Shown here: piece by piece, positions 817 through 42,605 of the stretch
How the letters are laid out: each line of letters begins with the position of its first letter
Position numbering within the stretch: position 1 is the stretch's first letter
DNA from: Phenylobacterium sp.
GTDB lineage: Bacteria; Pseudomonadota; Alphaproteobacteria; Caulobacterales; Caulobacteraceae
Direction of reading: 5' to 3'
NCBI RefSeq assembly: GCF_046291545.1
Contig: NZ_JBKBSM010000001.1
Location: 102,900-166,899, forward strand
Length of the DNA stretch: 64,000 nt
Translations under genes and position numbers: made by a program
The notes under the pieces: generated by a model
The model's database searches: none
The model's input: only the letters and a program-made list of their open reading frames with translations
What the model was told of the DNA's origin: nothing

Positions 817-1024
817 GATCGTCCCTTCCTCAGGACGGCGAAGCGGATGTGGGCGCAACCCTGCGTCAAAGACCGGCGCGACGCCAGAGACCGGCGGGCG
901 AGCGCTCACCCGTCCGGCGAGCGGGCGAAATGCGCCGCCGCGGGCCGGTCCGGCGAATTGGGACTTGAAAGGCTGCGGGCGGGCGGCGCAAGGAGCGGCC
1001 CGACGTCAGCATGGGAGCCTGCCG

Positions 1025-2473: not shown

Positions 2474-3230
2474 GGCGAAGGGCATGCGGCTGACAGGCAG
2501 GACGGCGATCGTGACGGGCGGAGCCTCGGGCTTCGGCGAAGGCATCGTGCGCAGGTTCGTCGAGGAGGGCGCGCGGGTGGCGATCGTCGACCTCAACGTT
2601 TCGGCGGCGCAGGCGCTGGCGGGCGAACTGGGCGACGCCGCCATCGCGGTGGGCGCGGACGTGTCCAAGGACGCGGACGTGGCGCGGCTGGCCGCCGAGG
2701 CGGTGCAGAAGCTGGGGCCGGTGGAGATCCTGGTGAACAACGCCGGCGTCGGGCACACGCCGCAGCCGCTGGAGACCCTGTCGGACGCCGACTTCGACCG
2801 GATCTGGGCGGTCAACGTGAAGTCGGTCTACCTGACGGCGCGGCACATCGTGCCGGCGATGAAGGCGGCCAGGCGCGGAGCGATCCTGAACGTCGCCTCG
2901 ACCGGCGGGGTCAGTCCGCGGCCAAACCTGACCTGGTACAACGCCTCCAAGGGCTGGATGATCACCGCCACCCGGGCGATGGCGGTGGAGCTGGCCCCCT
3001 TCGGCGTGCGGGTGAACGCGATCAATCCGGTCGCCGGGGAGACCCCGCTCCTCAAGACCTTCATGGGCGAGGACACCCCCGAGGTGCGGGCCAGGTTCCT
3101 GGCGTCGATCCCGCTGGGGCGGTTCTCGACGCCGGCGGACATGGGCGCGGCCGCGGCGTTCCTGTGCTCGGACGACGCTTCGATGGTGACGGGCGTGGCG
3201 ATGGAGGTCGACGGTGGCCGCTGCATCTGA
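2466..3230 (+). CDS. Short-chain dehydrogenase/reductase (FabG-like)
   Basis: [17 protein letters not shown]; overlaps the ALDH stop. Confidence 0.93.
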
Positions 3231-4326
3231 GCCCTTCCGCCTGCTGGTCCTGCCCGGGGACGGCATCGGCCCGGAGGTGATCGGTCAGACCCTGCGGGTC
3301 GTCGACTGGTTCGGCCGATTCCTCGGGCGGCCCTTTGCGATCAGCCAGGACCTGGTCGGCGGGGCCTGCCTCGACACGCACGGCGTTCCGGTGACGGACG
3401 CGGTGGTGGAGACCGCGCTCAGCGCCGATGCGGTGCTGTTCGGGGCGGTCGGCGGGGAGAAGTGGGACAGTCAGCCCATCCACCTGCGCCCGGAGGCCGG
3501 GCTGCTGCGGCTGCGCAAGGACCTGGACCTCTTCGCCAACCTGCGCCCGGCGATCTGCTATCCGGAGTTGGCCAGCGCCTCGGCGCTGCGGCCGGAACTG
3601 GTCGAGGGGCTCGATATATTGATCATCCGCGAGCTGACCGCCGGGGTCTACTTCGGCGAGCCGCGGGGCGTGGAGACCCTGGCGAACGGCGTGCGCCGGG
3701 CCTTCGACACCCAGGCCTACACCTCCGAGGAGGTGGAGCGGGTGGTGCGGGCGGGGTTCGACATCGCCCGCGGCCGCAACAGGCGCGTGTGCTCGGTGGA
3801 CAAGGCCAACGTGATGCAGACGGGCGCCTTCTGGCGCGAGATCGCCACCGCCGTCGGCCGCGACTATCCCGACGTGGAGCTGACCCACATGTACGCGGAC
3901 AACTGCGCCATGCAGCTGATGCGCCGGCCCAAGCAGTTCGACGTGGTGGTGACCGACAACCTGTTCGGCGACATCCTCTCGGACGCGGCGGCCATGCTGA
4001 CCGGATCGCTCGGCCTCCTGCCCTCGGCCTCGCTGGGAGCGGCGGGCCCGGACGGCGTCCGCAAGGCGCTCTACGAACCGGTGCACGGCTCGGCGCCGGA
4101 CATCGCCGGGCGGGGGCTGGCCAATCCGCTGGCGACGATCCTGTCGTTCGGCATGTGCCTGCGCCACTCGATGCGCGCGCCCGAGGCGGCCGATCGCCTT
4201 GAAGCCGCCGTGCGCCGCGTCCTGGCCCGGGGCGTTCGCACCGCCGACATCGCCCGTCCCGGCGAGGCGGGGGTGTCGACGACGCAGATGACCGACGCCG
4301 TGCTGGCGGAGTTGGATGCGATGTAG
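3214..4326 (+). CDS. leuB: 3-isopropylmalate dehydrogenase (beta-decarboxylating dehydrogenase)
   Basis: [53 protein letters not shown]. Confidence 0.85.
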
Positions 4327-4327
4327 C

Positions 4328-4345
4328 TGCTCAATCGGTTGAGCA
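4328..4345. promoter_or_regulatory. Perfect palindrome TGCTCAATCGGTTGAGCA, candidate XRE-cupin operator (site 1)
   Basis: 7-4-7 perfect inverted repeat upstream of the hydrolase-aminotransferase-ABC operon; related copies at 18185 and 18798. Confidence 0.7.
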
Positions 4346-4418
4346 CTAAACCCGGTTGGGCGCCGCGGGACGCGGGACTAGACTTGCGCGCTTGGGGACG
4401 CATTCGGCGGAGGGGGCC

Positions 4419-5423
4419 GTGCTGGCGAAGATCGGAATGGGGGTCTTGATCTTCATCGCGGCGCTCGCCGCCCTGGCGGGGCTGGCTTTCGCTGGGCTCT
4501 ACCGGCCAGACATCCCCTATGAGAAGCTTGAGGCCAAGTACGCCCGGCCGACCTCCCATTTCGCCGACCTGCCCGGCGGGGTGCGCATGCACTACCGCGA
4601 CGACGGTCCGCGCGACGCGCCGGTGGTCATGCTGGTGCACGGCTACGGGGACAGCTTCCTGACCTGGGAGCCCTTCATCGAGCGGCTGTCGCCGAATTTC
4701 CGGGTGATCACCATCGACCTGGCGGGCCACGGCCTGACCCGGGCGCCGGCGGGCTATGCGCCGGACATGGACCGCTTCGCCGAGCAGGTGGACGCCCTGG
4801 CTGCCAAGCTCGACCTGCCTCCCTTCGCCATCGTCGGCAACTCCATGGGGGGAGGCGTGGCCTGGCAGACGGCGGTCAGGTTCCCCGAGCGGGTGAAGGC
4901 GCTGGTGCTGGTGGACGCGGCCGGCTGGCCGGCGGACCCGAACAAGCCGGTCCCGGCCGCCTTCAAGATCCTGCAGAGCGACCTAGGCCGCTTCCTGCTG
5001 CAGCGGATCGAGACCCGGCCGCTGACGGCCCAGGGGCTGAAGATGGACGTGGTCGACGATTCCCTGATCACCCCGGCCTTCGTCGACCGCTGGGTCGAGG
5101 TGCAGCGCGCGCCTGGCCACCGGGCCATCCTGATGGGCGTGCGCCCGGGGCGGCACACCGTCGCCAGCGAAGCGGCGCTGGGCCAGATCAAGGCGCCCAC
5201 CCTGGTGCTGCATGGCGAGCAGGACGTGATCATCGATCCCGCGGACGGCCGCAAGTTCGCCGCCGCCATCCCCGGCGCGGCGCTGATCACCTATCCCAAC
5301 GCCGGCCACCTGCCGCAGTATGAAATCCCCGATCGCTCGGCCGCCGACGTGACGGCCTTCCTCCTGGCGCTGCAGGCCCCGCCCGCCGCGCCCGCCCCGC
5401 AACCCGCCAGGGACCCGGCATGA
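4419..5423 (+). CDS. Membrane-anchored alpha/beta-fold hydrolase
   Basis: N-terminal hydrophobic helix, HGYG, GNSMGG nucleophile elbow, GEQD acid, GH base; GTG 4419 after GGAGGGG (ATG 4437 is an alternative). Confidence 0.88.
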   Translation: MLAKIGMGVLIFIAALAALAGLAFAGLYRPDIPYEKLEAKYARPTSHFADLPGGVRMHYRDDGPRDAPVVMLVHGYGDSFLTWEPFIERLSPNFRVITIDLAGHGLTRAPAGYAPDMDRFAEQVDALAAKLDLPPFAIVGNSMGGGVAWQTAVRFPERVKALVLVDAAGWPADPNKPVPAAFKILQSDLGRFLLQRIETRPLTAQGLKMDVVDDSLITPAFVDRWVEVQRAPGHRAILMGVRPGRHTVASEAALGQIKAPTLVLHGEQDVIIDPADGRKFAAAIPGAALITYPNAGHLPQYEIPDRSAADVTAFLLALQAPPAAPAPQPARDPA

Positions 5424-6748
5424 CCACCCACTTCAAGCCCGCCGCCAATTCGCTGGACGCCTATTGGATGCCGTTCACGCCGAACCGGCGGTTCAAGGCC
5501 GATCCCCGGTTCGTCGAACGCGCCGAGGGCATGCACTACTTCACCCCCGACGGGCGGCGGATCCTGGACGCCACCTCGGGCCTTTGGTGCGTGAACGCCG
5601 GCCACAACCGCCCGCGGATCGTCGAGGCGATCCAGAAGCAGGCGGCCGAGATGGGCTACGCCACCACCTTCAACATGGGCCACCCCAAGGCCTTCGAGTT
5701 CGCCAACCGCCTGGCGGCCCTGGCGCCCGGCGACCTGAACCACGTGTTCTTCACCAACTCCGGCTCCGAGGCGGTCGACACGGCGCTGAAGATCGCCGTC
5801 GCCTACCAGCGCAGCCGCGGCAAGGGGACCAAGACCCGGCTGATCGGCCGCGAGCGCGGCTATCACGGCGTCGGCTTCGGCGGCATCTCGGTGGGCGGCA
5901 TCGTCAAGAACCGCATGTACTTCGGCTCGCTGCTGACCGGGGTGGACCATCTGCCGCACACCCACGACCTGGCGCGCAACGCCTTCTCCCGCGGGCAGCC
6001 CGAGCACGGCGCCGAGCTGGCCGACGAGCTGGAGCGGATCGTCACCCTGCACGACGCCTCCAACATCGCCGCGGTGATCGTCGAGCCGGTGGCCGGCTCG
6101 ACCGGGGTCCTGGTCCCGCCCAAGGGCTATCTGCAGCGCCTGCGGGCGATCTGCGACAAGCACGACATCCTCCTCATCTTCGACGAGGTGATCACCGGCT
6201 TCGGGCGGCTGGGCGCCTCGTTCGCGGCCGAGTACTTCGGCGTGCAGCCGGACATGATCACCATGGCCAAGGGCATCACCAACGCGGCGGTGCCGATGGG
6301 CGCGGTGGCCGTGCGGCCGCACATCTACGAGACCATGCTCGACAACGCCGACGCGCCGATCGAGCTGTTCCACGGCTACACCTATTCGGGCCACCCCTTG
6401 GCCTGCGCGGCCGGGCTGGCGACCCTGGACACCTATCGCGATGAAGACCTGTTCGGCCGCGCCGCGCGCCTGGCGCCGATGTGGGAGGAGGCCCTGCACG
6501 GCCTGGCCGACGCCCGCCACGTGATCGACATCCGCAACCTCGGCCTGATCGGCGGAATCGAGCTGGCGCCGCGTCCCGGCGCGCCGGGGGAACGGGCGAT
6601 GGAGGCGTTCCGCGCCAGCTTCGACCGGGGCCTGCTGGTGCGCGTGACCGGCGACATCATCGCCCTGTCGCCCTCGCTGATCATCGAGGAAGCCCAGATC
6701 GGCGAGATCATGGACACCCTGCGCCAGACCCTGGCCGAGATCGCGTGA
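5420..6748 (+). CDS. Class III omega-amino acid:pyruvate aminotransferase
   Basis: YWMPFT, SGLWCVNAGH, SGSEA, GYHG, FDEVITGFGRLG, AKGITN (PLP Lys), HGYTYSGHP. Confidence 0.93.
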   Translation: MTTHFKPAANSLDAYWMPFTPNRRFKADPRFVERAEGMHYFTPDGRRILDATSGLWCVNAGHNRPRIVEAIQKQAAEMGYATTFNMGHPKAFEFANRLAALAPGDLNHVFFTNSGSEAVDTALKIAVAYQRSRGKGTKTRLIGRERGYHGVGFGGISVGGIVKNRMYFGSLLTGVDHLPHTHDLARNAFSRGQPEHGAELADELERIVTLHDASNIAAVIVEPVAGSTGVLVPPKGYLQRLRAICDKHDILLIFDEVITGFGRLGASFAAEYFGVQPDMITMAKGITNAAVPMGAVAVRPHIYETMLDNADAPIELFHGYTYSGHPLACAAGLATLDTYRDEDLFGRAARLAPMWEEALHGLADARHVIDIRNLGLIGGIELAPRPGAPGERAMEAFRASFDRGLLVRVTGDIIALSPSLIIEEAQIGEIMDTLRQTLAEIA

Positions 6749-8148
6749 GCCCCGCCGCCGGCCATAGGACGAGCGGTCCGGCGGACTATCTCGGCAGCCC
6801 GGTGAGCCCGTGCGAGCCGGCGACGCTGGCGGCCGTCGACGACTTCGTCGGCGGCTTCCTCACCTATGAGCCGCGCGCCCTGGCGGTGCTGAAAGCCGCG
6901 GACGCCGACGCCGAGAGCGCCCTGGCCAACGCCTACGCCGGCGTGCTGCACATGCTGGGCGAGCACATGGCCGCGCCAGCCAAGGCCGCGGCCTACCTGG
7001 GCCGCGCAGAGGCGGCGCCCATGGCCAACGAACGCGAGCGGGGGATCATCGCCTTCCTGCGCGCCTGGATCGCCGACGACATCGACGCGGCCCTGGCGAT
7101 CGCCGACGAGGTGGTGGAGGCCTTTCCCACCGATCTGGCGATGGTCAAGCTCAGCCAGTACCTGAACCTGAACCGCGGCGACTTCCCGGCCATGCTGCGC
7201 ATCACCGACGCGGCGCTGGCGGCCAACTTCGCCGTGCCGCAGCTGCACGGCATGCGGGCCTTCGCCTATGAGCAGTGCCACCTCCTGGCCGACGCGGAAG
7301 CCGCCGCGCGCCAGGCGCTGCACATGCACATCCGCGAGCCCTGGGCGCAGCACGCCCTGGCCCACGTGATGCTGACCCAGGGGCGGATCTCCGAAGGCGG
7401 CGAGTTCATGGACGCGGCCTCGGAGACCTGGGCGGGCCTGAACTCGTTCATGTACACCCACAACTGGTGGCACCTGGCGCTGTTCCACCTGAGCCAGGGC
7501 CGCGGCGAAAGGGTGCTGGAGATCTACGACCGGCACTGCTGGACCCAGGACCGCACCTATTCCCAGGACCAGATCGGCGCAGTGTCGCTGCTCGCCCGCC
7601 TGGAGTTCGCCGGGCTGGAGGTGGGCGAGCGCTGGGCCGGCGTGGCCGAGCACCTAGTGGAGCGGGCCGAGGACGTGGTGCAGCCGTTCCTATCGCTGCA
7701 GTACCTGCTGGGCCTTGCCCGCGCCGGCCGGCCGGAGGCCGAGACGCTGATGGCGGCGATCGAGCGGCGCGTGCACGAGGCGCCGGCGCACAGCCGCCGC
7801 GCCTGGGCCGAGGCGGCCCTGCCGGCCGCCCAGGCGATAATGGCCCTGGAGCGGGGGCGGCCCGGCGCGGCGGTGGAGCGGATGGGCGCGGCCCTGCCCC
7901 GGCTGGTGGAGGTGGGCGGCAGCCATGCGCAGCGCGACCTCTTCGAACAGATCTTCCTGGAAGCCCTGCTGCGGGACGGGCGGCTGTCGCGGGCCCAGCA
8001 GGTGCTGGAGCTGCGCCGCGCCTTCGACCCGGACGGCGTTCCCCTCAACCTGGCCCTGGCGCGGGTCTACGACTCCCTCGGGTTGCCGGAACTGGCGGCC
8101 CGCGCCGCCTCCCGCGCCCTGCGTACCCAAGAAAGGCATGCGTGCTGA
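6745..8148 (+). CDS. TTC38-like tetratricopeptide-repeat protein
   Basis: Helical repeats with 'WAQHALAHV', 'HNWWHLALF' and 'GGSHAQRDLFEQ', recalled as typical of the TTC38 family; overlaps both neighbouring genes. Confidence 0.78.
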   Translation: MSPAAGHRTSGPADYLGSPVSPCEPATLAAVDDFVGGFLTYEPRALAVLKAADADAESALANAYAGVLHMLGEHMAAPAKAAAYLGRAEAAPMANERERGIIAFLRAWIADDIDAALAIADEVVEAFPTDLAMVKLSQYLNLNRGDFPAMLRITDAALAANFAVPQLHGMRAFAYEQCHLLADAEAAARQALHMHIREPWAQHALAHVMLTQGRISEGGEFMDAASETWAGLNSFMYTHNWWHLALFHLSQGRGERVLEIYDRHCWTQDRTYSQDQIGAVSLLARLEFAGLEVGERWAGVAEHLVERAEDVVQPFLSLQYLLGLARAGRPEAETLMAAIERRVHEAPAHSRRAWAEAALPAAQAIMALERGRPGAAVERMGAALPRLVEVGGSHAQRDLFEQIFLEALLRDGRLSRAQQVLELRRAFDPDGVPLNLALARVYDSLGLPELAARAASRALRTQERHAC

Positions 8149-9434
8149 TGCCCCATCCCCGTGAAGACGCCCTGCTCCGCGAGATCGAGGCACGGCGCGA
8201 CGACCTGGTGGCCCTGACCCAGGACCTGATCCGGTTTCCGACGATCAATCCGCCGGGGGACGCCTATCGCCCGTGCGCCGAATACCTGGGCGAGCGGCTG
8301 AAGAAGCGCGGCTTCGCCGTGGAGTACGTGCGGGCGGAAGGCTCGCCGGGGGACTGCGAGGCCTATCCCCGGATCAACGTCATCGCTCGCTGGGAGAGCG
8401 GCCGGCCGGGGCCGTGCGTGCACTTCAACAGCCATATCGACGTGGTATCGGTGGGCGAGGGCTGGACGGTGGACCCCTTCGGCGGGGTGGTGAAGGACGG
8501 CAAGGTCTACGGCCGTGGCGCCTGCGACATGAAGGGGGGTCTGGCCGCCTCGGTGATCGCGGTGGAGGCGCTGATCGATTCCGGCGTCGAGCTGCCGGGC
8601 GCGCTGGAGATTTCGGGCACGGCCGACGAGGAGAGCGGCGGCTACGGCGGGGTCGCGTACCTGGCCGAACGCGGCTGGTTCTCCAAGCCCCGCGTGGATC
8701 ACGTCATCATCCCCGAGCCGCTGAACGTGGACCGGGTGTGCATCGGCCACCGCGGCGTCTGGTGGTCGGAGATCACCACCGAAGGCCACATCGCCCACGG
8801 CTCGATGCCGTTCCTGGGGGACAACGCCGTGCGCCACATGGGCGCGGTGATCGCGGAGCTGGAGCGGCGGATCTTCCCGACCCTGAGCGCGCACCAGACC
8901 TCGATGCCGGTGGTGCCGGAAGGCGCGCGCACGCCGACGCTGAACATCAACTCCATCCACGGCGGGGAGCCGGACGTCACCGGCTCGGGCCTGCCCGCGC
9001 CGGTGGTCCCGGACAGCTGCCGGATCGTGCTGGATCGCCGGCTGCTGATTGAGGAGGACCTCGACGAAGTGAAGGCGCAGATGCGCTCGGTGCTCGACGG
9101 CCTCACCCAGACCCGGCCGAACTTCCGCTACCGGATGCGCGACCTGTTCGAGGTGCGTCCCTCGATGACCGAGCCGGACCGGCCGGTGGTGCGCATGACC
9201 TGCGAGGCCATCGAGCAGGTGCTGGGCAAGCCCGCCGACATCTGTTGCTCGCCAGGCACCTACGACCAGAAGCACATCGACCGCATCGGCAAGCTGCGGG
9301 ACTGCATCGCCTATGGCCCCGGAATCCTGGACCTGGCGCACCAGCCGGACGAGTACGTCGGCATCGACGACATGGTGAACTCGGCCAAGGTGATGGCCCT
9401 GTCGGCCTATGCCCTGCTGACCGGCCAGGCGTGA
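8148..9434 (+). CDS. M20 (ArgE/DapE-family) deacylase/amidohydrolase
   Basis: NSHIDVV, GRGACDMKGG, DEESGG, PEP, HGSMP, AHQPDEYV. Confidence 0.92.
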   Translation: MPHPREDALLREIEARRDDLVALTQDLIRFPTINPPGDAYRPCAEYLGERLKKRGFAVEYVRAEGSPGDCEAYPRINVIARWESGRPGPCVHFNSHIDVVSVGEGWTVDPFGGVVKDGKVYGRGACDMKGGLAASVIAVEALIDSGVELPGALEISGTADEESGGYGGVAYLAERGWFSKPRVDHVIIPEPLNVDRVCIGHRGVWWSEITTEGHIAHGSMPFLGDNAVRHMGAVIAELERRIFPTLSAHQTSMPVVPEGARTPTLNINSIHGGEPDVTGSGLPAPVVPDSCRIVLDRRLLIEEDLDEVKAQMRSVLDGLTQTRPNFRYRMRDLFEVRPSMTEPDRPVVRMTCEAIEQVLGKPADICCSPGTYDQKHIDRIGKLRDCIAYGPGILDLAHQPDEYVGIDDMVNSAKVMALSAYALLTGQA

Positions 9435-9441
9435 GCCGCCG

Positions 9442-12003
9442 TTGAGCCGCAGCGCCGACCATAGGGGCCGCTGGGCAGGGCTGCTGGCCCTGCTCTTCGG
9501 CGTGCTGCTGCTGGCGAGCCCGGCGGCGGCGCGCGACGTGCTGCGGATCGGCCAGCAGCTCGAGCCGCCGAACCTGGACCCGACCGCCGGCGCCGCGGCG
9601 GCCGTGGACGAGGTGGTCTACGGCAACGTCTTCGAGGGCCTGATCCACATCGGACGCAACGGCGGCGTGGAGCCGCGGCTGGCAGAGTCCTGGGAGATCT
9701 CGCCGGACGGCAGGATCTATGTCTTCCACCTGCGGCGGGGGGTGCGCTTCCACGACGGCGAGCCGTTCGACGCCAGCGTTGTGAAGTTCACCCTGGACCG
9801 GGCGCGGGCGCCGGAGTCCGCCAACGCCCAGAAGGCCAGTTTCGAGGTGATCGAGCGGGTCGATGTGGTGGACGCCCAGACCGTCCGCCTGGTGCTGAAG
9901 CGGCCGGACACGCGCCTGCTCTACGTGCTGGGCTGGGGCGATGCGGTGATGGTTGCGCCCAGGAGCGCCGCCGACAACGCCGTGACCCCGGTCGGGACAG
10001 GCCCCTACCGGTTCGTGGAATGGCGGCGGGGCGAATCGATCACGCTCGAGCGCTTCGCCGACTACTGGGGCCCTGCGCCCCGCATCGGACGGGTGGTGTT
10101 CAAGTTCATCGCCGACCCGACCGCCGCCTTCGCCGCGGTGAAGGCCGGGGACCTGGACGCCTTCCCCAATTTCCCCGCGCCGGAGAACCTGGCCGACCTT
10201 GCCGCCGACCCGCGCTTTCGGGTGGTGGTCGGTTCGACCGAAGGCGAGACGATCCTGGCGCTGAACAACGCCAAGCCGCCCTTCGACAAGCTGAAGGTCC
10301 GCCAGGCGATCAGCTACGCCATCGACCGCAAGGCGATCATCCAGGGGGCGATGTTCGGCTACGGCAAGCCGATCGGCAGCCATTTCCCGCCGCACAGCCC
10401 CGACTATGTCGACCTGACCGGACTCTATCCGCACGATCCGGCCAAGGCGCGGGCGCTGCTGGCGGAAGCGGGCTATCCCGACGGCTTCGAGGCGACGCTG
10501 AAGCTGCCGCCGCCCAGCTACGCCCGGCGGGGCGGGGAAATCGTCGCCGCGCAACTGGCCCAGATCGGCGTTCGGGTGAAGATCGAGAATCTGGAGTGGT
10601 CCCAGTGGCTGGACCAGGTGCTCGGCAACAAGAGCTTCGACATGACCATCGTCTCGCACACCGAGCCGATGGACTACGACATCTATGCGCGGCCGGACTA
10701 CTACTTCGGCTATCGCAGCCCGGCCTACGACGCGCTCATGGCGAAGCTCAACGCCGCCGTGGATCCGGCCGAGCGGCGCGCCCTGCTGGCGCAGATCCAG
10801 CGCAAGCTCGCCGACGATGCGGTGAACGGCTTCCTCTTCCAGTTCCCCAAGCTGAACGTGTGGGACGCCAAGCTGGAAGGCATGTGGGTCGACGCGCCGG
10901 TGCAGGCCAACGAGGCGGCCGAGGCCTGGTACGACGAACCGGGCGCGGCGGCCGCGCCGGCGGCCAGCCGCCGGACCGGCGGCGCGGGCGCCCTGCTCGG
11001 CTATGGCGTCCTCGCCGCCTGTGCGGCCTTCGCCCTCTACGGGTTCCTGCGGCTGGGGGCGGCCTATGTGGCGGGCCGGCTGGTGTCCCTGGCGCTGACC
11101 TTCCTGGCCGCCACGGTGGTCGTCTTCGCACTGATCCAGATCGTGCCGGGCGATCCGGCCGCCTTCATGATGGGGCTGAACGCAAACCCCGAGGCGGTGG
11201 CCGCCCTGCGCGCGCAGATGGGCCTGGATGCGCCGGCGCCCGAGCGTTACCTGACCTGGATCGCGGGCTTGGCGCACGGCGACTTCGGCGCCAGCTACAC
11301 CTACCGCGTGCCGGTGGCCCAGTTGATCGCCGAGCGGATGGCGGTGTCGCTGCCCCTGGCGCTCCTGGCCCTGGCGATCAGCCTGGCCGTGGCCCTGCCG
11401 ATTGGCGTGTTCGCCGCAAGCCGCCGGGGCAAGGCCTCCGACGCCCTGGTGATGGGCGCGACCCAGGTGGGCATGGCGCTTCCCAACTTCTGGCTGGCGA
11501 TGCTGCTGGTGCTGGTGTTCGCCATCGGCCTTCGCTGGCTGCCGGCGGGCGGCTTCCCGGGCTGGGACGCGGGACTCTGGCGCGGGCTGAAGGCGCTGGT
11601 CCTGCCGGCGACCGCGCTGGCCCTGCCGCAGGCGGCGATCCTGGCCCGGGTGCTGCGCTCGGCGCTGGTGGAGACCCTCGGCGAGGACTATGTGCGCACC
11701 GCGCGGGCCAAGGGCCTCTCGGAGAGCCAGGTCATCCGCCGCCACGCCCTGCGCAACGCCATGATCCCGATGCTGACGATCCTGGGCCTGCAGATCCCCT
11801 TCCTGCTGGCCGGGGCGGTGATCGTGGAGAACGTCTTCTTCCTGCCTGGGCTCGGACGTCTGGTGTTCCAGGCGATCACCCAGCGCGACCTGATCGTCGT
11901 GCAGAGCGTGGTGGTGCTGCTGGTCTTCGCCGTGGTGCTGGTGAACTTCCTGGTCGACCTGGGCTATGCGGCCGTCGACCCGCGGCTGAGGCGGGGGCGA
12001 TGA
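9442..12003 (+). CDS. Peptide ABC transporter: family-5 substrate-binding protein fused to a DppB-type permease
   Basis: Signal peptide; LDP..VYEGL-like and GTGPY SBP motifs; Ala-rich linker and one extra TM helix; then PGDPA...RTARAKGL permease, all in one frame. Confidence 0.88.
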   Translation: MSRSADHRGRWAGLLALLFGVLLLASPAAARDVLRIGQQLEPPNLDPTAGAAAAVDEVVYGNVFEGLIHIGRNGGVEPRLAESWEISPDGRIYVFHLRRGVRFHDGEPFDASVVKFTLDRARAPESANAQKASFEVIERVDVVDAQTVRLVLKRPDTRLLYVLGWGDAVMVAPRSAADNAVTPVGTGPYRFVEWRRGESITLERFADYWGPAPRIGRVVFKFIADPTAAFAAVKAGDLDAFPNFPAPENLADLAADPRFRVVVGSTEGETILALNNAKPPFDKLKVRQAISYAIDRKAIIQGAMFGYGKPIGSHFPPHSPDYVDLTGLYPHDPAKARALLAEAGYPDGFEATLKLPPPSYARRGGEIVAAQLAQIGVRVKIENLEWSQWLDQVLGNKSFDMTIVSHTEPMDYDIYARPDYYFGYRSPAYDALMAKLNAAVDPAERRALLAQIQRKLADDAVNGFLFQFPKLNVWDAKLEGMWVDAPVQANEAAEAWYDEPGAAAAPAASRRTGGAGALLGYGVLAACAAFALYGFLRLGAAYVAGRLVSLALTFLAATVVVFALIQIVPGDPAAFMMGLNANPEAVAALRAQMGLDAPAPERYLTWIAGLAHGDFGASYTYRVPVAQLIAERMAVSLPLALLALAISLAVALPIGVFAASRRGKASDALVMGATQVGMALPNFWLAMLLVLVFAIGLRWLPAGGFPGWDAGLWRGLKALVLPATALALPQAAILARVLRSALVETLGEDYVRTARAKGLSESQVIRRHALRNAMIPMLTILGLQIPFLLAGAVIVENVFFLPGLGRLVFQAITQRDLIVVQSVVVLLVFAVVLVNFLVDLGYAAVDPRLRRGR

Positions 12004-12824
12004 GCGCGCTTCGCCGCAACGCCGGCCTCGCCCTGGGCGCGGCCCTGACCCTGGCCTTCCTGTCCGCGGCGCTGCTGTCGTTCGTGTGGACGCCGTACGA
12101 CGTGGCGGATCTCGACATCGCCGGGCGCCTGCAGGCGCCCTCGGCCGCCCACTGGCTGGGCACCGACCACTTCGGCCGGGACGTCGCCTCGATGATCCTG
12201 GTCGGGGCGCGCAATTCCCTGGCGGTGGCCCTGGTGGCGGCGGGGCTGGGCATGCTGGTGGGCGTGCCCGCGGGGCTGGCGGCGGCCGCGCGCAGGGGCT
12301 GGCTGGACGAGCTGGTGATGCGCACCAACGACCTGATCTTCGCCTTCCCCTCGCTCCTGCTGGCGATCATGATCACGGCGGTGGCCGGGCCGGGGGCGGT
12401 CAACGCGATCATCGCCATCGGCGTCTTCAACATCCCGGTGTTCGCCCGGGTGGCGCGGGGCGCGGCCCTGTCGCTGTGGACGCGCGATTACGTGCTGGCG
12501 GCGCGGGTGGCGGGCAAGGGACCGGCGGCGATCTCGCTGCAGCACATCCTGCCCAACATCGCCGGGCTTCTGATCGTGCAGGGCACCATCCAGTTCTCCA
12601 TGGGCGTGCTGGCCGAGGCGGGCCTGTCCTACGTGGGGCTGGGCGCCCAGCCGCCGATCCCGAGCTGGGGCCGGATGCTGAACGAGGCCCAGACCATGAT
12701 CGGCTTCGCCCCGTGGCTGGCGATCTTCCCGGGGCTGGCGGTGGTGACCACGGTGATCGGCCTCAACCTCCTGGGCGACGGGCTGCGCGACGCCCTGGAC
12801 CCCAAGCTCGACCGGAGCCGCTGA
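12000..12824 (+). CDS. Peptide ABC transporter permease (DppC-type)
   Basis: HWLGTDHFGRDV, HILPN, EAGLSYVGLG, SWGRML, NLLGDGLRDALDP; ATGA overlap. Confidence 0.93.
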   Translation: MSALRRNAGLALGAALTLAFLSAALLSFVWTPYDVADLDIAGRLQAPSAAHWLGTDHFGRDVASMILVGARNSLAVALVAAGLGMLVGVPAGLAAAARRGWLDELVMRTNDLIFAFPSLLLAIMITAVAGPGAVNAIIAIGVFNIPVFARVARGAALSLWTRDYVLAARVAGKGPAAISLQHILPNIAGLLIVQGTIQFSMGVLAEAGLSYVGLGAQPPIPSWGRMLNEAQTMIGFAPWLAIFPGLAVVTTVIGLNLLGDGLRDALDPKLDRSR

Positions 12825-12825
12825 G

Positions 12826-14433
<1,608 letters not shown>

Positions 14434-14498
14434 GCCCCGCCGCCAGATCCGGCCCCGCGCCTGCAGCGGGTGTCGGGCGGCGGCGCACGGGAAAGCCC

Positions 14499-15503
14499 CT
14501 AGCCCTTGAGCGCCTCGTGTACGCCGCGGGCGATGGCGCGGGCGGTGCAGTCGGCGGCGGCCGAGCCGATCGCGGCGAGGCGGACGGCGCGATCGTCGCC
14601 GTGGCCTATCGAGCAGGCGCCGGTGGCGATGGCGAACAGGGTGTCGCCGTCGAAGGGCATGTGCGCCGGCCGCACCGCCCGGGCGAGGCCGTCGTGGGCC
14701 ATCATCGCCAGGCGCTTGCATTCGGCGGTGGTGAGGTCGGCGGTGGTGGCGACGACGCCGATGGTGGTGGCCGCGCCCGGTTGCAGGCGCCCCAGGCTGG
14801 CCAGCCGGCCGTCGTCGGGCACCGGGTCGATGGCGCCGACCGCGGGGTCGGGCCGGCCGCCGCCGAACTCCCCGTCGATCTCGAAGGGCCAGGCCCAGAA
14901 GGCGCGGCCGTCGGGGGTCATCACCGAGCCCACGGGATTGGCGACGATCAGCGCCCCCGCCACAAGGCCCCCGCCCATGTCCAGGGAGGCCGAGCCGACC
15001 CCGCCCTTGATCAGGCCGGCCATGGCGCCCAGTCCTGCGCCCGCCGAGCCCAGGGCGAACTGCGGCCCGGCGGCGTCCAGCGAAGCCATGCCGAGGCGGC
15101 GGTAGGGCGGATCCAGCCCCCAGGCCTTGTCCCCCGGGTTGGCGAGGTCGTGCAGGACCGCGGCGGGGACGATGGGGATGGCCGGAGACCCGGGCTTGAG
15201 ATGCAGACCGACGCCGCGGGCGGACAGGGCGGCGACCACCCCGTCGGCGGCGGCGAGGCCGAACACCGAACCGCCGGACAGAACGACGGCATGGGCGCGG
15301 CCGACCAGGTTCTCGGCCGCCAGGGTCTCGGTCTCCCGCACGCCGGGCCCGCCGCCGCGCACGTCGACGGAGGCGTTGTAGAAGCCCTCGCAGACCAGGG
15401 TGGTGACGCCGGTGCCGGCGGCGGAGTCGTCGGCGTGGCCGACCATGAGGCCGGCCACGTCGGTGATCAGGTTCCGGGGCCCGGGGCGGGGAAGCTGGCG
15501 CAT
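14499..15503 (-). CDS. DmpA/NylC-family (peptidase S58/P1) hydrolase, cytoplasmic copy
   Basis: NLITDVAGL.VGH, DVRGGGPG.RET, GGSVFGL, DGLARA, DGDTLFA; ATG 15503. Confidence 0.9.
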   Translation of the reverse strand: MRQLPRPGPRNLITDVAGLMVGHADDSAAGTGVTTLVCEGFYNASVDVRGGGPGVRETETLAAENLVGRAHAVVLSGGSVFGLAAADGVVAALSARGVGLHLKPGSPAIPIVPAAVLHDLANPGDKAWGLDPPYRRLGMASLDAAGPQFALGSAGAGLGAMAGLIKGGVGSASLDMGGGLVAGALIVANPVGSVMTPDGRAFWAWPFEIDGEFGGGRPDPAVGAIDPVPDDGRLASLGRLQPGAATTIGVVATTADLTTAECKRLAMMAHDGLARAVRPAHMPFDGDTLFAIATGACSIGHGDDRAVRLAAIGSAAADCTARAIARGVHEALKG

Positions 15504-15547
15504 GTCCGCGCCCTTCTGCCTCCTCGCGCCCGGGATGGAAAGCGGCC

Positions 15548-17737
15548 TCAGTAGGCGTAGGTCAGCCGCACCCCGTAGGTGCGCGGCGTGCCCCGCTGAC
15601 CCACCTCGGCTTCGGTGAAGAAGTTCCGGGTGAGGTCGTACTCCTCGTCGAACAGGTTGCGCACCCAGATCGACGCGCCCCAGGGGCCGTCGGCCGGCGT
15701 CACGCCGATGCTGGCGTTGGCCAGCCAGTAGGCCGGGATGTCGTACTTCTCGCCCAGCCAGGAGACCTGGTCGTCGCGCCAGCTGTAGTTCAGCTCGGAC
15801 CGGACCACGAAGTCGCCGACGTCCGCCGTGTAGGCGACGGAGCCGCCGTAGGTCCACTTGCCGAAGGGGATCTCCTGGCCGGACTTGTCGATGTAGACCT
15901 CCACGCCGGCGGCGCGGGTGGCGGGCACGTCGAGATCGCGGAACTCCTTGAACTCGCCGTCCTTGTAGCTGGCGCTCTGGCTGATGGTCAGGCCCGCGGT
16001 GGGGGCCCACACCAGCTCAAGCTCGCCGCCCCAGATCTCCGACTTGGGCGCGTTGACGAAACTGCCGACCAGCCCGTTGGCGGTGAGCCGGGCCGAGAGG
16101 ACCTGCTGGTCGCGGTAGTCGTAGAAGAAGGCCGCGCCGTTGAACTGCAGGGCCGCGGTCGGGTTGGTCTTGAAGCCGACCTCGTAGGCGTAGAGCGTCT
16201 CCGGCTTGAAGGCGGCGATCGCCGCGCGGTTGGCCGTGTTGTAGGTGGTGAAGCCCCCCGACTTCACGCCCTTGCTGGCCGAGGCGTAGATCAGGACGTC
16301 GGCCATCGGCTTGTATTCGAGCGCGATCTTCCCGGTGGTCGGGTTCATGTCGGTCTCGACCGAGCTCTCCGGCAGGGCCGTGGCGCCGCCGAAGGCCGAG
16401 GTGAAGTCCTGCAGCTCGCGGGTCTCCTCCTCGTAGCGCAGGCCGCCGATCAGCTTCCACTGGTCGTTGAAGGCGTATTCGGCCTGGCCGAAGACGCTCG
16501 CGGAGGTCACTTCCTGGGTGTAGCGGACGCGGGCGGTGAGGCCGTAGTTATCCAGGAAGTCGGAGTAGTAGCGCTCGCGCAGGACCTGACGGGAGACATA
16601 GACCCCGGCCACCCACTGCAGCGGCCCCTCGGTGTTGGACGCCAGGCGCAGCTCGTCCGACCAGACCTTCACCTTGGAGCCGAAGAAGACGTCGGCGGCG
16701 ATGGAGGAGGAGGCGTCGTAGTCGCCGTATTCCTCGCGGTGCAGGTAGTCGTAGGCGGCGATGTTGGTGAGCTTGACCGCCCCCAGGTCCCAGGAGGCGT
16801 TGGCCGAGGCGCCCCAGGTCTTGTTGTCGCGGCCAGGCTTGGAATCGACTTCCAGGCGGGTGTCGGCGACGAGGCCGGGCGAGATGCTCCAGCCGGTGCC
16901 GGTGGTGTCGGTGTCGGCCGGGATGGTCGGGCCGGCGCCGAAGCGGGTGGAGAACGGCTCAGTCAGGTAGAGGCCGATGTTCTCGGACTTGTCGATGCCG
17001 GCGTGAACGTCGAGCATCACGCCCAGGTTCGGCGTCACATCGATGTCGAGCATCGCCCGGGCCGCGACCTTGTCGGCGTCGCCCAGGGAATCGCCGGTTT
17101 CCCGGTTGTGCTGCCAGGCGCCGCCCTGCTCGGTCCCGAAGGACAGGCGGCCGCGGATCGATTCGCTGATCGGGCCGGAGATGTAGCCCTCGGCCTTCAG
17201 CGCCTCGAATCGGCCGAACTCCACCGAAGCGCCGGCCGCCACTTCGGCGGTGGGCATGCCGGTGATGAAGTTGATCGCCCCGCCGGTGGTGTTGCGGCCG
17301 TAGAGCGTGCCCTGCGGCCCGCGCAGCACCTCGACCCGCTGGACGTCGAAGATCAGACCCTGGGTCATGACCGGGATCGGATAGGCGACCTCGTTCACAT
17401 AGACGCCGACGGTGGGCGTGTTGTTGGTGGCGTAGTCCTGGAAGCCGACGCCGCGCAGGCGGAACTGGGCCGCGCCCGAGCCGAAGGCGGGCTCGATGTC
17501 CAGGCTCGGCGTCGCGGTCTGCAGCTGATTGACGTTGGTGATGCCCCGCTGGGCGAGGTCGTCGCCGCCGAGCACGGACAGGGCGATGCCCACGTCCTGG
17601 GCCGCCTGCTCCCGCCGCTGGGCCGTGACCACGATTTCTTCGACCGAGGCCTCGGCGGGCCTGGCCTGCGCCGCAGCGGCCCCGGCATGGGCGGCGCCCA
17701 CGATCCCGACGGCTGCGCTCACTAGGAAACGCTTCAT
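15548..17737 (-). CDS. TonB-dependent receptor
   Basis: Signal peptide, EEIVVTAQRR, RVEVLRGPQGTLYGRNTTGGAINF plug, C-terminal PRTYGVRLTYAY. Confidence 0.95.
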   Translation of the reverse strand: MKRFLVSAAVGIVGAAHAGAAAAQARPAEASVEEIVVTAQRREQAAQDVGIALSVLGGDDLAQRGITNVNQLQTATPSLDIEPAFGSGAAQFRLRGVGFQDYATNNTPTVGVYVNEVAYPIPVMTQGLIFDVQRVEVLRGPQGTLYGRNTTGGAINFITGMPTAEVAAGASVEFGRFEALKAEGYISGPISESIRGRLSFGTEQGGAWQHNRETGDSLGDADKVAARAMLDIDVTPNLGVMLDVHAGIDKSENIGLYLTEPFSTRFGAGPTIPADTDTTGTGWSISPGLVADTRLEVDSKPGRDNKTWGASANASWDLGAVKLTNIAAYDYLHREEYGDYDASSSIAADVFFGSKVKVWSDELRLASNTEGPLQWVAGVYVSRQVLRERYYSDFLDNYGLTARVRYTQEVTSASVFGQAEYAFNDQWKLIGGLRYEEETRELQDFTSAFGGATALPESSVETDMNPTTGKIALEYKPMADVLIYASASKGVKSGGFTTYNTANRAAIAAFKPETLYAYEVGFKTNPTAALQFNGAAFFYDYRDQQVLSARLTANGLVGSFVNAPKSEIWGGELELVWAPTAGLTISQSASYKDGEFKEFRDLDVPATRAAGVEVYIDKSGQEIPFGKWTYGGSVAYTADVGDFVVRSELNYSWRDDQVSWLGEKYDIPAYWLANASIGVTPADGPWGASIWVRNLFDEEYDLTRNFFTEAEVGQRGTPRTYGVRLTYAY

Positions 17738-18184
17738 GACTATCCCCGTTCTTCGACGCGCCTGCGCGCGCTCGCGACATGCTCCTCTGGAGCCCATTGG
17801 CCCGCCCGCCGGCGGCGGGACGAGCCTCTCCAGTCTAACCGCTCGATGAAGGATTCTTGAAGACTTACCGGCGTCGAGCGTTGGATGGCTAACAATCAGG
17901 CCTGTTCACGGTCAACGCGCCGAATACAGAACCTCCCCAAGATTCCATTTTTCGACCAATAAAATTGCGCACCCATCCAAATGCTAAGCAACAATATTTC
18001 GAGGGCGGGCTTTTATCGACGAATTCAATCACGTAAGGAGAAGCGGCCGGGTGGGGCAAGTAAGCACCCGCCACGTTCCTTCGCTCTAGTTGTTCGACGG
18101 CATGATCACTCGGCCGCAAGGCGGCGAACAGACTATTTGTTTGAATCGCCAAGCCATTGATTTTGCCCAACTAATGTCGCGACA

Positions 18185-18202
18185 TGCTCAATATTCCGAG
18201 CA
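18185..18202. promoter_or_regulatory. TGCTCAATATTCCGAGCA, candidate XRE-cupin operator (site 2)
   Basis: Two mismatches to the site-1 palindrome; at the far end of the AT-rich region upstream of the TonB receptor. Confidence 0.55.
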
Positions 18203-18230
18203 GGGACATCGTCCGTGGACCGCGCGCGGT

Positions 18231-18779
18231 TCAGAAGGTTGGCGGCGTGCAGGCGCTGACGACGATGCAGACGCCGTCGCCGACGTTGCGGAACCGGTGA
18301 GGGATGGTGCTCTTGAAAAGATAAGCCTCGCCGGCCTTCAGCACCCGGGTCTGCTCGCCGACGGTCACCTCGAGACGACCCTGGATGATGACGCCGCCCT
18401 CTTCACCCTCATGGGTGAGCATCACGCGGCCGCTGTCCGATCCGGGCTGGTAGGTCTCGTAGAGGATCTGCAGGGTGGATAGGCCGTTTCCCGCGCCGAC
18501 CTGCCGGTAAGACACGTCGCCGCTTGAGATTTCCGCCAGCTCGTCGGCGCGGAAGAAGACCTGGGCCTCGGTCTTCAGCTCGAAGCTGAAGAACTCGGCC
18601 AGGGACAGGCCGGCGGCGTCGAGCAGCCGCTTGAGCGAGCCGATCGAGGGATTGGTCCGGCCGCCCTCGATCAGGGAGACGGTGCTGGACGGCACGCCGG
18701 CCCGGCGGGCCAGGGCGCGCTGGGTGATGCCCAGCCGCGTGCGCACCGTACGCAGCCGCGCGCCGACTTCCTGGTCCAT
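18231..18779 (-). CDS. XRE-HTH/cupin transcriptional regulator, PuuR/PauR-like
   Basis: HTH 'QRALARRAGV..STVSLIEGG.TNPSIGSL', cupin 'HEGEEGGVIIQG', 'PHRFRN...TPPTF'. Confidence 0.88.
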   Translation of the reverse strand: MDQEVGARLRTVRTRLGITQRALARRAGVPSSTVSLIEGGRTNPSIGSLKRLLDAAGLSLAEFFSFELKTEAQVFFRADELAEISSGDVSYRQVGAGNGLSTLQILYETYQPGSDSGRVMLTHEGEEGGVIIQGRLEVTVGEQTRVLKAGEAYLFKSTIPHRFRNVGDGVCIVVSACTPPTF

Positions 18780-18797
18780 GGGCGCCTCCGATCAGCC

Positions 18798-18815
18798 TGC
18801 TCAAAACGATGAGCG
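18798..18815. promoter_or_regulatory. TGCTCAAAACGATGAGCG, candidate XRE-cupin operator (site 3, autoregulatory position)
   Basis: Two mismatches to site 1; about 19 bp upstream of the regulator start. Confidence 0.6.
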
Positions 18816-19061
18816 ATCCGGCCAGAATGATGCGCTAATCAGCGATCTAGCCATCGCAAATAATAGGGTTGCGACTGCAGGAACAGTCGGGCCGAATGCT
18901 GTGCGCATGTGTCGTCCGCAGGGCGGGATGGTCAGATCGCAGGCACGGCCCCCCGGCCGGCCGCGCGCGGACGCCTCCACCCCGGCGGGACCCGCAAACC
19001 GGTTGCGCCGCCGCGCGAACCTGACTTCAACCGAGCCCTCGCCCCCAGTCCGGAGCACCAG

Positions 19062-20195
19062 ATGAACCGCCGCGCCCTTCTCGCCTCCCTGATGACCGCG
19101 GCCGCGGGGGCTTCGGCCGCCCGCGCCGCCGAGTCGGCGCCGCCGCGGGCCGTGATGCTCCCGGGCAAGGCCGGTCCCCTGAACCTGATCACCGACGTGC
19201 CCGGGCTGAAGGTGGGCCAGGCCGAGGACGCCAAGGCCCGCACCGGGGTGACCGTGATCCTGCCCGACGAGGCGGCGGTGGCGGCGGTGGACGTGCGCGG
19301 CGGCGGCCCGGGCACCCGCGAGACCGACGCCCTGGACGTGGAGAACCTGGCCCACGTGGCGCACGCGATCTGCCTGTCCGGCGGCTCGGTCTACGGCCTG
19401 GCGGCGGCGGACGGGGTCTGCGCCTGGCTGGGCGCCCAGGGACGCGGCTTCGGCATGGGCGCCCTGCCGCCGGGGGCGCCGCCCTCGCCGATCGTGCCGG
19501 CCGCGATCCTGTTCGACATCCCCAACGGCGGCGACAAGAACTGGGGCCTCGAGCCGCCTTATCGCCGCCTCGGCCTGGAAGCGGTGCAGGCGACGGGGAC
19601 GATGTTCAAGCTGGGCACCGCCGGCGCCGGCTACGGCGCGCGCTCGGGCGGGTTGAAGGGCGGGCTCGGCTCGGCCTCGGCGGTCAGCGCCGACGGGATG
19701 ACCGTGGGCGCGATCGTGGCGGTCAACAGCGCCGGCTCGGTGCTGGCGCCCGGCACCCGGCAGTTCTGGGCCGCGCCGCTGGAGATCGGCCGGGAGTTCG
19801 GCGGTCTCGGCGTCGACCGCCTCGCAGCCCTTCCCGACGAGTGGGGCCCGGCCAAGGCCGACCCGCAGGCGCGCCAGAACACCACAATCGCCTGCATCGC
19901 CACGGACGTGCGGCTGGAGCCCGGCGAGATCAAGCGGGTGGCCATCATGGCCCAGGACGGCCTGGCCCGCGCCATCCGTCCGATCCATGCTCCGTTCGAC
20001 GGCGACGTTGTCTTCGCCCTGTCCACCGGCAAGCGCGAGGCGGCCGAGCCGCGCGCCTTCACCGTGGCGCGAATCGGGGCCCTGGCCGCCGACGTCCTCG
20101 CCCGGGCCGTGGCCCGCGGCGTCTACGAGGCGACCACCTGGCCCGGAAGCCCGACCAAGGCCTGGCGCGACCTGCCGGCGGACGCAAATCCTTAA
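19062..20195 (+). CDS. DmpA/NylC-family hydrolase with Tat-like signal (periplasmic copy)
   Basis: MNRRALL twin-Arg leader ending in AARA; NLITDVPGL, DVRGGGPGTRET, QNTTIACIATD, DGDVVFA. Confidence 0.9.
   Translation: MNRRALLASLMTAAAGASAARAAESAPPRAVMLPGKAGPLNLITDVPGLKVGQAEDAKARTGVTVILPDEAAVAAVDVRGGGPGTRETDALDVENLAHVAHAICLSGGSVYGLAAADGVCAWLGAQGRGFGMGALPPGAPPSPIVPAAILFDIPNGGDKNWGLEPPYRRLGLEAVQATGTMFKLGTAGAGYGARSGGLKGGLGSASAVSADGMTVGAIVAVNSAGSVLAPGTRQFWAAPLEIGREFGGLGVDRLAALPDEWGPAKADPQARQNTTIACIATDVRLEPGEIKRVAIMAQDGLARAIRPIHAPFDGDVVFALSTGKREAAEPRAFTVARIGALAADVLARAVARGVYEATTWPGSPTKAWRDLPADANP

Positions 20196-41222: not shown

Positions 41223-41223
<1 letters not shown>
40048..41223 (+). CDS. cpaE: CpaE/TadZ pilus localisation protein
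   Basis: Degenerate receiver domain plus MinD-like GAVGGAGATT, VDLNL, YDHVVVDMP. Confidence 0.82.

Positions 41224-42605
<1,382 letters not shown>

Follow-up and report, generated by a model that had tools for sequence, protein, structure and literature searches.

Our analysis of a 64,000-nucleotide stretch of Phenylobacterium sp. DNA (contig NZ_JBKBSM010000001.1, positions 102,900 to 166,899, hereafter the window) indicates that three inverted repeats are very probably the operators of an adjacent 182-amino-acid XRE-cupin regulator, through which it would control its own gene and the flanking transcription units by ligand-released repression. The assignment, already proposed in the initial annotation, is made with this confidence because each site holds the same place in related bacteria. 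The elements in question are the following.

4328-4345, no strand: predicted operator 1, TGCTCAATCGGTTGAGCA, perfect inverted repeat in the gap that separates the Iso_dh stop codon from the alpha/beta-hydrolase gene (motif scan)
18185-18202, no strand: predicted operator 2, TGCTCAATATTCCGAGCA (motif scan, matrix, positional conservation)
18231-18779, minus strand: regulator, 182 amino acids, XRE helix-turn-helix (HTH) and cupin_2 domains, PuuR-like (Pfam/NCBIfam)
18798-18815, no strand: predicted operator 3, autoregulatory, TGCTCAAAACGATGAGCG (motif scan, positional conservation)

The sites had been described as three intergenic copies of TGCTCAA-N4-TTGAGCA, and the motif scan and the gene map reproduced their coordinates, their mismatch counts (0, 2, 2) and their intergenic location. 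The scan returned four matches, at 4328-4345 (0 mismatches) and at 18185-18202, 18798-18815 and 41557-41574 (2 each), against a chance expectation of 0.05, and four matches were reached in 0 of 100 dinucleotide-preserving shuffles. Read as TGCTCA-N6-TGAGCA, the same four sites carry 0, 1, 1 and 1 mismatches, with 0.12 matches expected. The non-coding share of the window is at most 13.5% on a rough gene map, so that three intergenic matches out of four correspond to P ~0.009, and these three flank the sole XRE-cupin gene of the window. In alignments of relatives the arms are conserved while the spacer varies freely, and the motif therefore appears better described as 6-N6-6 than as 7-N4-7; the repeat proposed at the outset stands, while its form does not. 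The seventh base on each side is part of an often A+T-rich, unconstrained spacer. The consensus in the window is yGCTCr-N6-yGAGCr, with TGCTCA-N6-TGAGCA as the ideal form.

The copy at 41557-41574 (TGCTCAAGGACGAGAGCA) was rejected as an operator; it is a chance match within the gene for a CpaF/TadA-like ATPase (41223-42605), of which it encodes the conserved peptide PLLKDESI. There is hardly any likelihood that the other three are chance palindromes as well. The pattern was indeed picked after the sequence had been read, and this fourth match is clearly fortuitous, but no shuffle reached the observed count, and all three recur at the corresponding positions of other genomes.

Eighty genomic loci were retrieved with the alignment of regulator homologs. 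Loci L081-L087 come from a metagenome scan with the hydrolase, and L093-L098 are contigs that carry 84-90% identical regulators and share the synteny of the window. The closest named relative among the regulator homologs belongs to a Phenylobacterium metagenome-assembled genome (MAG; 86% identity), which places the window in the Caulobacteraceae, and the sequencing runs containing the window sequence are of metagenomic DNA only. Phylogenetic footprinting of orthologous promoters, suggested earlier as a check, found all three sites conserved in position.

Site 3 ends 18 nt before the regulator ATG (18779). It starts 34-38 nt before the start codon in the window, L001, L093 and L097, and about 74 nt before it in L095. 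Alignment of these five loci gives (C/T)GCTCA-N6-TG(A/G)GC(A/G) before the regulator gene, in which the arms GCTCA/TGAGC differ only once, in L093, and the 6-nt spacer varies completely. Promoter-like blocks are also kept in the five loci, even where the divergent gene differs, and they would put operator 3 at about +13 to +30 of the following putative promoter.

18836-18868, minus strand: putative regulator promoter, conserved CCTATTATTT, 16 nt and TGATTA (from conserved blocks)

In more distant orders, a palindrome of the TGTTCA-N6-TGAACA type lies 28-57 nt before the regulator start. Such palindromes were found in Caenispirillum, Ferrovibrio, Aureimonas, Agrobacterium/Rhizobium, Shinella, Hoeflea, Paracoccus, Rhodobacteraceae and Sphingomonadales, and include the following sequences.

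Caenispirillum and Ferrovibrio: TGTTCAGGATCGTGAACA
Ferrovibrio: TGTTCAATATATTGAACA
Agrobacterium, Rhizobium and Shinella: TTTTCGATATTTCGAACA
Aureimonas: TGTTCGATATGTCGAACG
a Sphingomonadales MAG: TGATTAATATATTGATCA

A family scan (TGHTCR-N6-YGADCA, at most 1 mismatch, start between -62 and -25) detected a site in 22 of the 80 loci, as compared to 0.69 expected from the overall match rate. Autorepression is the firmest part of the proposed mechanism. Site 3 does lie, as stated initially, between the regulator and a periplasmic hydrolase, in the divergent region they share. The hydrolase, a secreted S58 amidase, most likely starts at ATG 19062 (Tat-like NRRALL signal), some 250 bp away, and its direct control is less secure.

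Site 2 starts 28 nt after the regulator stop codon. An operator about 20-50 nt after the regulator stop is also found in L001, L003, L004, L005, L006, L007, L008, L009, L093, L095/96 and L097, whether the next gene encodes a TonB receptor or an aminotransferase. Its equivalents include the following.

L001: TGCTCAATGAATTGAGCG
L093: TGCTCGATATATCGAGCA
Brevundimonas diminuta: TGATCAGTATTCCGATCA
Novosphingobium: TGCTCAATATGCTGATCG

On the minus strand, 3' of site 2, two further elements are conserved across Caulobacterales, namely AATCAATGGCTTG at 18162-18150, which resembles an integration host factor (IHF) site, and then AAACAAATAGTCTGTT at 18142-18127. The location of site 2 upstream of the TonB receptor operon could be upheld; as the receptor start is most likely ATG 17737 (signal peptide MKRFLVSAAV), the distance is about 450 bp, and direct control of the receptor is less secure. 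The spacer between regulator and receptor is unusually long, about 490 bp (17738-18184 beyond site 2), and contains an A+T-rich patch at about 17940-18010. In distant loci (e.g., L010, L011, L014), a related AACAAG...TTTTCT or AAACAG-CTGTTT element was observed between the operator and aptA. An Rfam scan of the whole window returned no family, so no riboswitch or leader accounts for the long spacer, and the predicted fold of the 447-nt leader was not significant (z = -1.4). A sigma-54 -24/-12 motif 3' of site 2, checked by eye, was not conserved and was rejected.

Site 1 starts 1 nt after the Iso_dh TAG, 64 nt before GTG 4410 and 91 nt before the hydrolase ATG 4437. Equivalents precede the hydrolase gene in three metagenomic relatives.

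L081: TGCTCATTTTCTTGAGCA
L082, where the upstream gene is an SDR (short-chain dehydrogenase/reductase) gene, not IsoDH: CGCTCATTTTATTGAGCA
L083: TGCTCAATATGTTGAGCA

A block 3' of site 1, consisting of CTTAACCCGGTTGGGC, about 14 nt and GCTA, is kept in the window and in all three relatives, with variable flanking bases. It resembles the Caulobacter housekeeping promoter consensus TTGACGS-N10-14-GCTANAWC, which Malakooti and colleagues reportedly described in 1995. Conservation of this promoter-like block supports an independent promoter for the hydrolase-to-ABC (ATP-binding cassette) operon, with the following putative position.

4356-4383, plus strand: putative hydrolase-to-ABC promoter, TTGGGCG at 4356-4362, 14-nt spacer, ACTAGAC at 4377-4383 (consensus only)

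A scan for E. coli-type sigma-70 promoters around the sites gave nothing useful, and promoter positions are accordingly consensus-based guesses. In L082 a second operator-like site, TGATCAAAATTTTCAGCA (5972-5989), covers the hydrolase start, 91 bp 3' of the first (5881), and has no equivalent in the window.

The initial annotation also held that site 1 separates the GntR-ALDH-SDR-leuB unit (ALDH, aldehyde dehydrogenase) from the downstream operon. As regards regulation this agrees with our findings in this clade, in which the promoter-like block lies 3' of site 1 and no operator was found before ALDH, either in the GntR-ALDH intergenic region of the window or upstream of ALDH in L082. As regards function the separation does not hold. 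In Brevundimonas the same operator precedes ALDH (L005 5213, L006 5218, L007 5217) at the head of ALDH-SDR-IsoDH-M20-regulator, and the ALDH, SDR and IsoDH genes consequently belong to the same pathway. The full gene order in Brevundimonas and its relatives is ALDH-SDR-IsoDH-M20-regulator-TonB receptor-aminotransferase, and in B. diminuta the operator is also found before the aminotransferase gene (L005 13040, L006 13043).

A family weight matrix built from the sites of other genomes only, with those of the window excluded, ranked site 2 first over the 64 kb (24.1 bits) and the following site inside the Iso_dh coding sequence second, and gave site 1 only 9.7 bits.

3608-3625, no strand: possible auxiliary operator GGCTCGATATATTGATCA inside the Iso_dh coding sequence, uncertain (family matrix, 22.0 bits)

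The site lies 720 bp upstream of site 1 and contains two rare codons, ATA (5 of 361 Ile codons) and TTG (20 of 857 Leu codons), at a position where orthologs have GAC-ATC-CTG. L081 carries this 18-mer unchanged (655-672); given that the two genes have 11% of all their 18-mers in common, this is weak evidence. Either an auxiliary operator or a coincidence could account for the site. Further matrix matches at 56447, 41671, 12358 and 19510 were discarded as false positives in A+T-rich or coding DNA.

Alternatively, the repeats might act as RNA hairpins that terminate a transcript or stabilise its 3' end, that of Iso_dh at site 1 and that of the regulator at site 2. Site 1 follows a stop codon by 1 nt and site 2 by 28 nt, and the predicted stems reach -7 to -10 kcal/mol. 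We consider this explanation extremely unlikely. Stems of -7 to -10 kcal/mol are only modest, there is no U-tract, and a terminator scan gave no match at any of the three sites. The arms are kept as sequence without compensatory changes while the loop varies, no Rfam family matched, and the same sequence occurs upstream of the regulator start codon, where a terminator makes no sense.

The regulator itself has an N-terminal HTH at residues 4-63 (Pfam HTH_31, 5e-14; HTH_3, 6e-12) and a C-terminal Cupin_2 domain at residues 107-175 (6.7e-18), the architecture that defines XRE-cupin transcription factors of the PuuR/PauR/PsdR type. The intergenic palindromes that members of this group have on the flanks of their own gene are present here at 18798-18815 and 18185-18202. 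It is 41% identical to E. coli PuuR over the full length and scores 152.4 bits on the NCBIfam PuuR equivalog NF007408, under the cutoff of 211. Moreover, no gamma-glutamylation (puuA/puuD-type) domains were detected among the genes searched (118 to 29794). The protein is therefore not PuuR in the strict sense.

Its HTH appears to vary together with the half-site. In 8 loci, Ser at residue 31 (VPSST...) accompanies TGCTCA/TGATCA arms, with C or A as the third base, and in 27 loci Asn (VTNAT/VTNST/VPNST) accompanies TGTTCA/TTTCGA arms. No exceptions to this split were observed, and the covariation is nonetheless suggestive only, because it may reflect perhaps two independent evolutionary changes. 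The family matrix was also applied to 5 kb around E. coli puuR, where the top three half-site matches, ATATAATGAACA, AAATATTGAACA and ATATAATGACCA, all fall in the puuA-puuD control region. The half-site typical of PuuR boxes, an A+T-rich stretch followed by TGAACA, was thus recovered; the clade of the window has TGAGCA instead of TGAACA.

Another factor could bind the palindromes, for instance the GntR/FCD regulator at 118-909, whose gene heads the ALDH-SDR-IsoDH unit 3.4 kb from site 1, or a global regulator, in which case the linkage to the XRE-cupin gene would be indirect. This is very improbable in our view, given that the motif accompanies the XRE-cupin gene at set distances from its start and stop codons across alphaproteobacterial orders, including loci with no detected GntR homolog, that the half-site covaries with the XRE-cupin HTH and that the motif resembles the E. 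coli PuuR boxes. In addition, the GntR-ALDH intergenic region has no site, and the motif does not match GT-N-AC, the core of FadR-type operators. Positional conservation and HTH covariation together lend strong in silico support to the original assignment of the sites to the protein encoded at 18231-18779.

In the mechanism that we propose, a dimer would set one HTH on each 6-bp arm. The ligand-free protein would stay bound and hold down its own gene via site 3, just downstream of the likely promoter. Occupancy of site 2 would hold down the TonB-receptor/S58-amidase operon and that of site 1 the operon for the hydrolase, AptA aminotransferase, M20 deacylase and ABC importer; the divergent secreted S58 amidase would probably be controlled too. 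A small amine or amino acid of the pathway would then bind the cupin domain and release the protein. Binding, dimer stoichiometry, repression rather than activation, effector and substrate are all inferred parts of this model, in which the dimer and the ligand release are proposed by analogy with characterised XRE-cupin factors. The control of its own gene and both flanking operons, as initially suggested, is strongly supported in silico, with that of the receptor and the S58 hydrolase less secure than autoregulation.

A number of observations weigh against this interpretation. The promoter-like block lies 10 nt 3' of site 1 and puts the operator centre near -55, which is atypical for occlusion. 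The receptor promoter was not located in the promoter scans, and about 450 bp between site 2 and the receptor start is likewise atypical for a repressor. The weak family-matrix score of site 1 also counts here, although the site is under-scored because its spacer is G+C-rich and the matrix rewards A+T-rich spacers; the same is true of the few changes that may underlie the HTH covariation. Finally, the more distant hydrolase loci L084-L087 showed no motif and no detected regulator gene, L002 showed no recognisable site, and most of the 80 loci had no TGTTCA-type palindrome at the expected place, in particular those from Bradyrhizobium, Brucella/Ochrobactrum and Methylobacterium.

Because of the atypical geometry of site 1 and the unplaced promoter at site 2, we keep one further explanation as a live rival, improbable as it seems to us. 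The regulator might bind the sites and repress only its own promoter, acting by activation, looping or bending at the hydrolase/ABC and receptor promoters. Site 1 would be centred about 55 nt upstream of the presumed transcription start and 10 nt upstream of the -35-like TTGGGC, a class-I activator position. About 20-25 nt past site 2 there is a conserved IHF-like WATCAA-N4-TTR, Iso_dh contains a possible second operator 720 bp upstream of site 1, and in L082 the hydrolase start codon is covered by a second site. On the other hand, the promoter assignments are guesses from consensus, and every characterised XRE-cupin factor (PuuR, PauR, PsdR, ErfA and further P. aeruginosa members) inhibits transcription (PMC7901475). 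Ligand-released repression at all three sites remains the interpretation that we favour.

The genes around the sites, whose families were assigned by Pfam and NCBIfam, are clearly marked by third-position G+C (window G+C ~71%) and are arranged as follows.

118-909, minus strand: GntR/FCD regulator (Pfam/NCBIfam)
1025-2473, plus strand: aldehyde dehydrogenase (Pfam/NCBIfam)
2466-3230, plus strand: SDR (Pfam/NCBIfam)
3214-4326, plus strand: LeuB-like Iso_dh (Pfam/NCBIfam)
4410-14433, plus strand: hydrolase-to-ABC operon, predicted target (Pfam/NCBIfam; gene order common to L081-L083 and L093-L096)
4410 or 4437-5423, plus strand: membrane-anchored alpha/beta hydrolase (Pfam/NCBIfam)
5420-6748, plus strand: AptA-type omega-aminotransferase (NCBIfam AptA equivalog)
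6745-8148, plus strand: 467-amino-acid tetratricopeptide repeat (TPR)-like protein with no family match of its own (profile searches)
8151-9434, plus strand: M20 ArgE/DapE-type deacylase (Pfam/NCBIfam)
9442-12003, plus strand: fused SBP_bac_5-permease (Pfam/NCBIfam)
about 12000-12824, plus strand: second permease (Pfam/NCBIfam)
12826-14433, plus strand: double ABC ATPase (Pfam/NCBIfam)
14499-17737, minus strand: receptor/amidase operon, predicted target (Pfam; same pair 3' of the regulator in L093, L095, L096 and L097)
14499-15545, minus strand: S58/DmpA-family amidase (Pfam)
15548-17737, minus strand: TonB-dependent receptor (Pfam; start by signal peptide)
19062-20195, plus strand: Tat-secreted S58 family amidase, probable target (Pfam, signal peptide, PDB sequence search)

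The aminotransferase is the regulator's conserved partner. In most of the 80 loci the regulator gene is divergent from or adjoins an aminotransferase gene whose product is 59-70% identical to that of the window, and the latter scores 766.3 bits on the NCBIfam AptA equivalog NF052567 (cutoff 500). Enzymes of the AptA type deaminate beta- and omega-amino acids. The window also encodes two N-terminal-nucleophile amidases of the S58 (DmpA/BapA/NylC) family, at 19062-20195, with the Tat-type signal NRRALL, and at 14499-15545. A PDB sequence search returned ThnT, a pantetheine-cleaving amidohydrolase, and nylon-oligomer hydrolases of the NylC type as the closest solved relatives of the secreted enzyme, a hint that the regulon acts on an amide or oligoamide. 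Taking the S58 amidases, AptA, the TonB receptor, the peptide-type ABC importer, the M20 deacylase and the aldehyde dehydrogenase together, the regulon seems to serve the uptake and degradation of amides or oligoamides derived from beta- or omega-amino acids. These would be imported and hydrolysed, the released amino acid transaminated and the resulting aldehyde oxidised.

The gene content opposite the regulator differs among relatives. The S58 gene is in the unit divergent from the regulator in L093, L095 and L096, and in L097 and L098 it closes a mau-like cluster. In L001 the divergent unit opens with a methylamine-dehydrogenase-like gene and the S58 gene lies further upstream on the same strand. 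Methylamine-dehydrogenase-like clusters were observed in L001 (8585-9757), L097 (2838-7330) and L098 (2371-6863), where the window has a lone S58 gene. Those of L097 and L098 encode heavy and light chains, MauE and, last, the S58 amidase; the check in L001 covered the heavy-chain-like gene alone. In L095 (13261-14268) the S58 gene 3' of the TonB receptor is split into open reading frames (ORFs) of 127 and 175 amino acids, probably by a frameshift or an assembly error, and it is intact (335 amino acids) in the near-identical L096.

Two proteins of the hydrolase-to-ABC operon deserve mention. At 9442-12003, a single ORF of 853 amino acids joins a family-5 (Dpp/Opp-type) solute-binding domain to a DppB-like permease. 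The fusion is kept in L093, L095 and L096 as called genes of 853-855 amino acids, and in L001, L007 and L084-L087 as continuous matches; it looks like an uncommon architecture among peptide-type ABC importers. The 467-amino-acid protein (6745-8148) had no match of its own in Pfam, NCBIfam or the PDB sequence search. Its homologs are abundant, annotated as 'tetratricopeptide repeat protein' or 'predicted Zn-dependent protease', and match TPR models weakly. Their alignment contains many invariant His, Glu and Asp residues, suggesting an enzyme rather than a scaffold.

Taken further, the system might represent an undescribed alphaproteobacterial regulon for the TonB-dependent uptake and breakdown of beta- or omega-aminoacyl (oligo)amides, i.e., natural counterparts of nylon oligomers, beta-peptides or pantetheine-like amides. 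It would employ NylC/ThnT-like S58 amidases, AptA, aldehyde dehydrogenase and the TPR-like protein with its many invariant histidines under a sensor related to PuuR, retuned by a single change from Asn31 to Ser (T to C/A at arm position 3) and maybe acting from about -55 by activation or looping. We put this forward tentatively, as a rather doubtful possibility in its entirety. Otherwise, what we describe is a well-supported and routine regulon inference, consistent with known XRE-cupin regulators.

For a PuuR-like regulator found widely in Alphaproteobacteria, almost always beside an AptA-type omega-aminotransferase, the analysis thus yields a concrete predicted operator that can be put to the test. 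Its form is TGCTCA-N6-TGAGCA in the clade of the window and mostly TGTTCA-N6-TGAACA in others, and it allows genome-wide tracing of the regulon. The motif ties a TonB receptor, two S58 amidases, an M20 deacylase, an ABC importer and a TPR-like protein into one probable amino-amide pathway, of possible interest with regard to omega-transaminases, beta-peptide turnover and polyamide breakdown, and the link between Ser/Asn-31 and the third base of the half-site offers a handle on specificity.

In the literature searched, we found neither a prior description of this alphaproteobacterial regulon or palindrome nor experimental data for this clade. XRE-cupin factors act locally, repressing metabolic genes in their neighbourhood, and occupy palindromes as dimers, often beside their own gene. 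Polyamines release PuuR and PauR; PsdR has a dipeptidase and a dipeptide-binding protein as its targets, and PauR controls polyamine and omega-amino-acid catabolism, including aminotransferases (PMC7901475; PMC10965056). A 182-amino-acid 'PuuR' of Rhizobium phaseoli, conserved across Hyphomicrobiales, has been described by computational prediction, in a 2025 study that transferred the E. coli PuuR matrix and put forward nodI among its targets, with putrescine as the ligand (PMC12645834). It has the same length and architecture as the regulator of the window and probably belongs to the same orthologous group. In Agrobacterium/Rhizobium loci, we found TTTTCGATATTTCGAACA about 38 nt before the 'PuuR'-type regulator gene; the R. 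phaseoli study neither derived a native palindrome nor noted the conserved aminotransferase partner (PMC12645834).

E. coli PuuR, the repressor of the putrescine-utilisation puu genes, has the same XRE HTH and cupin architecture as our regulator, and both are characterised, in the latter case by prediction, by autoregulation and control of neighbouring amine-catabolic genes. Nemoto and colleagues are said to have described the E. coli PuuR boxes in 2012 as asymmetric 15-mers, and reportedly obtained PuuR footprints on AAAATATAATGAACA-like boxes in the puuA-puuD control region. The half-site TGAACA after an A+T-rich stretch is the part of these boxes that the alphaproteobacterial matrix recognises in that region. 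The sites of the window, in contrast, are complete 6-N6-6 palindromes in which arm position 3 is C and not T. P. aeruginosa PauR, PsdR, ErfA, PA0535 and others are likewise local, with intergenic palindromes beside their own gene and adjacent metabolic or transport targets (Trouillon et al., 2021, PMC7901475). Compared to these, the predicted regulon of the window is alphaproteobacterial, has a different operator sequence (that of PsdR is TTAAG-N5-CTTAA; PMC10965056) and would have a TonB receptor, S58 amidases and an AptA aminotransferase as its targets.

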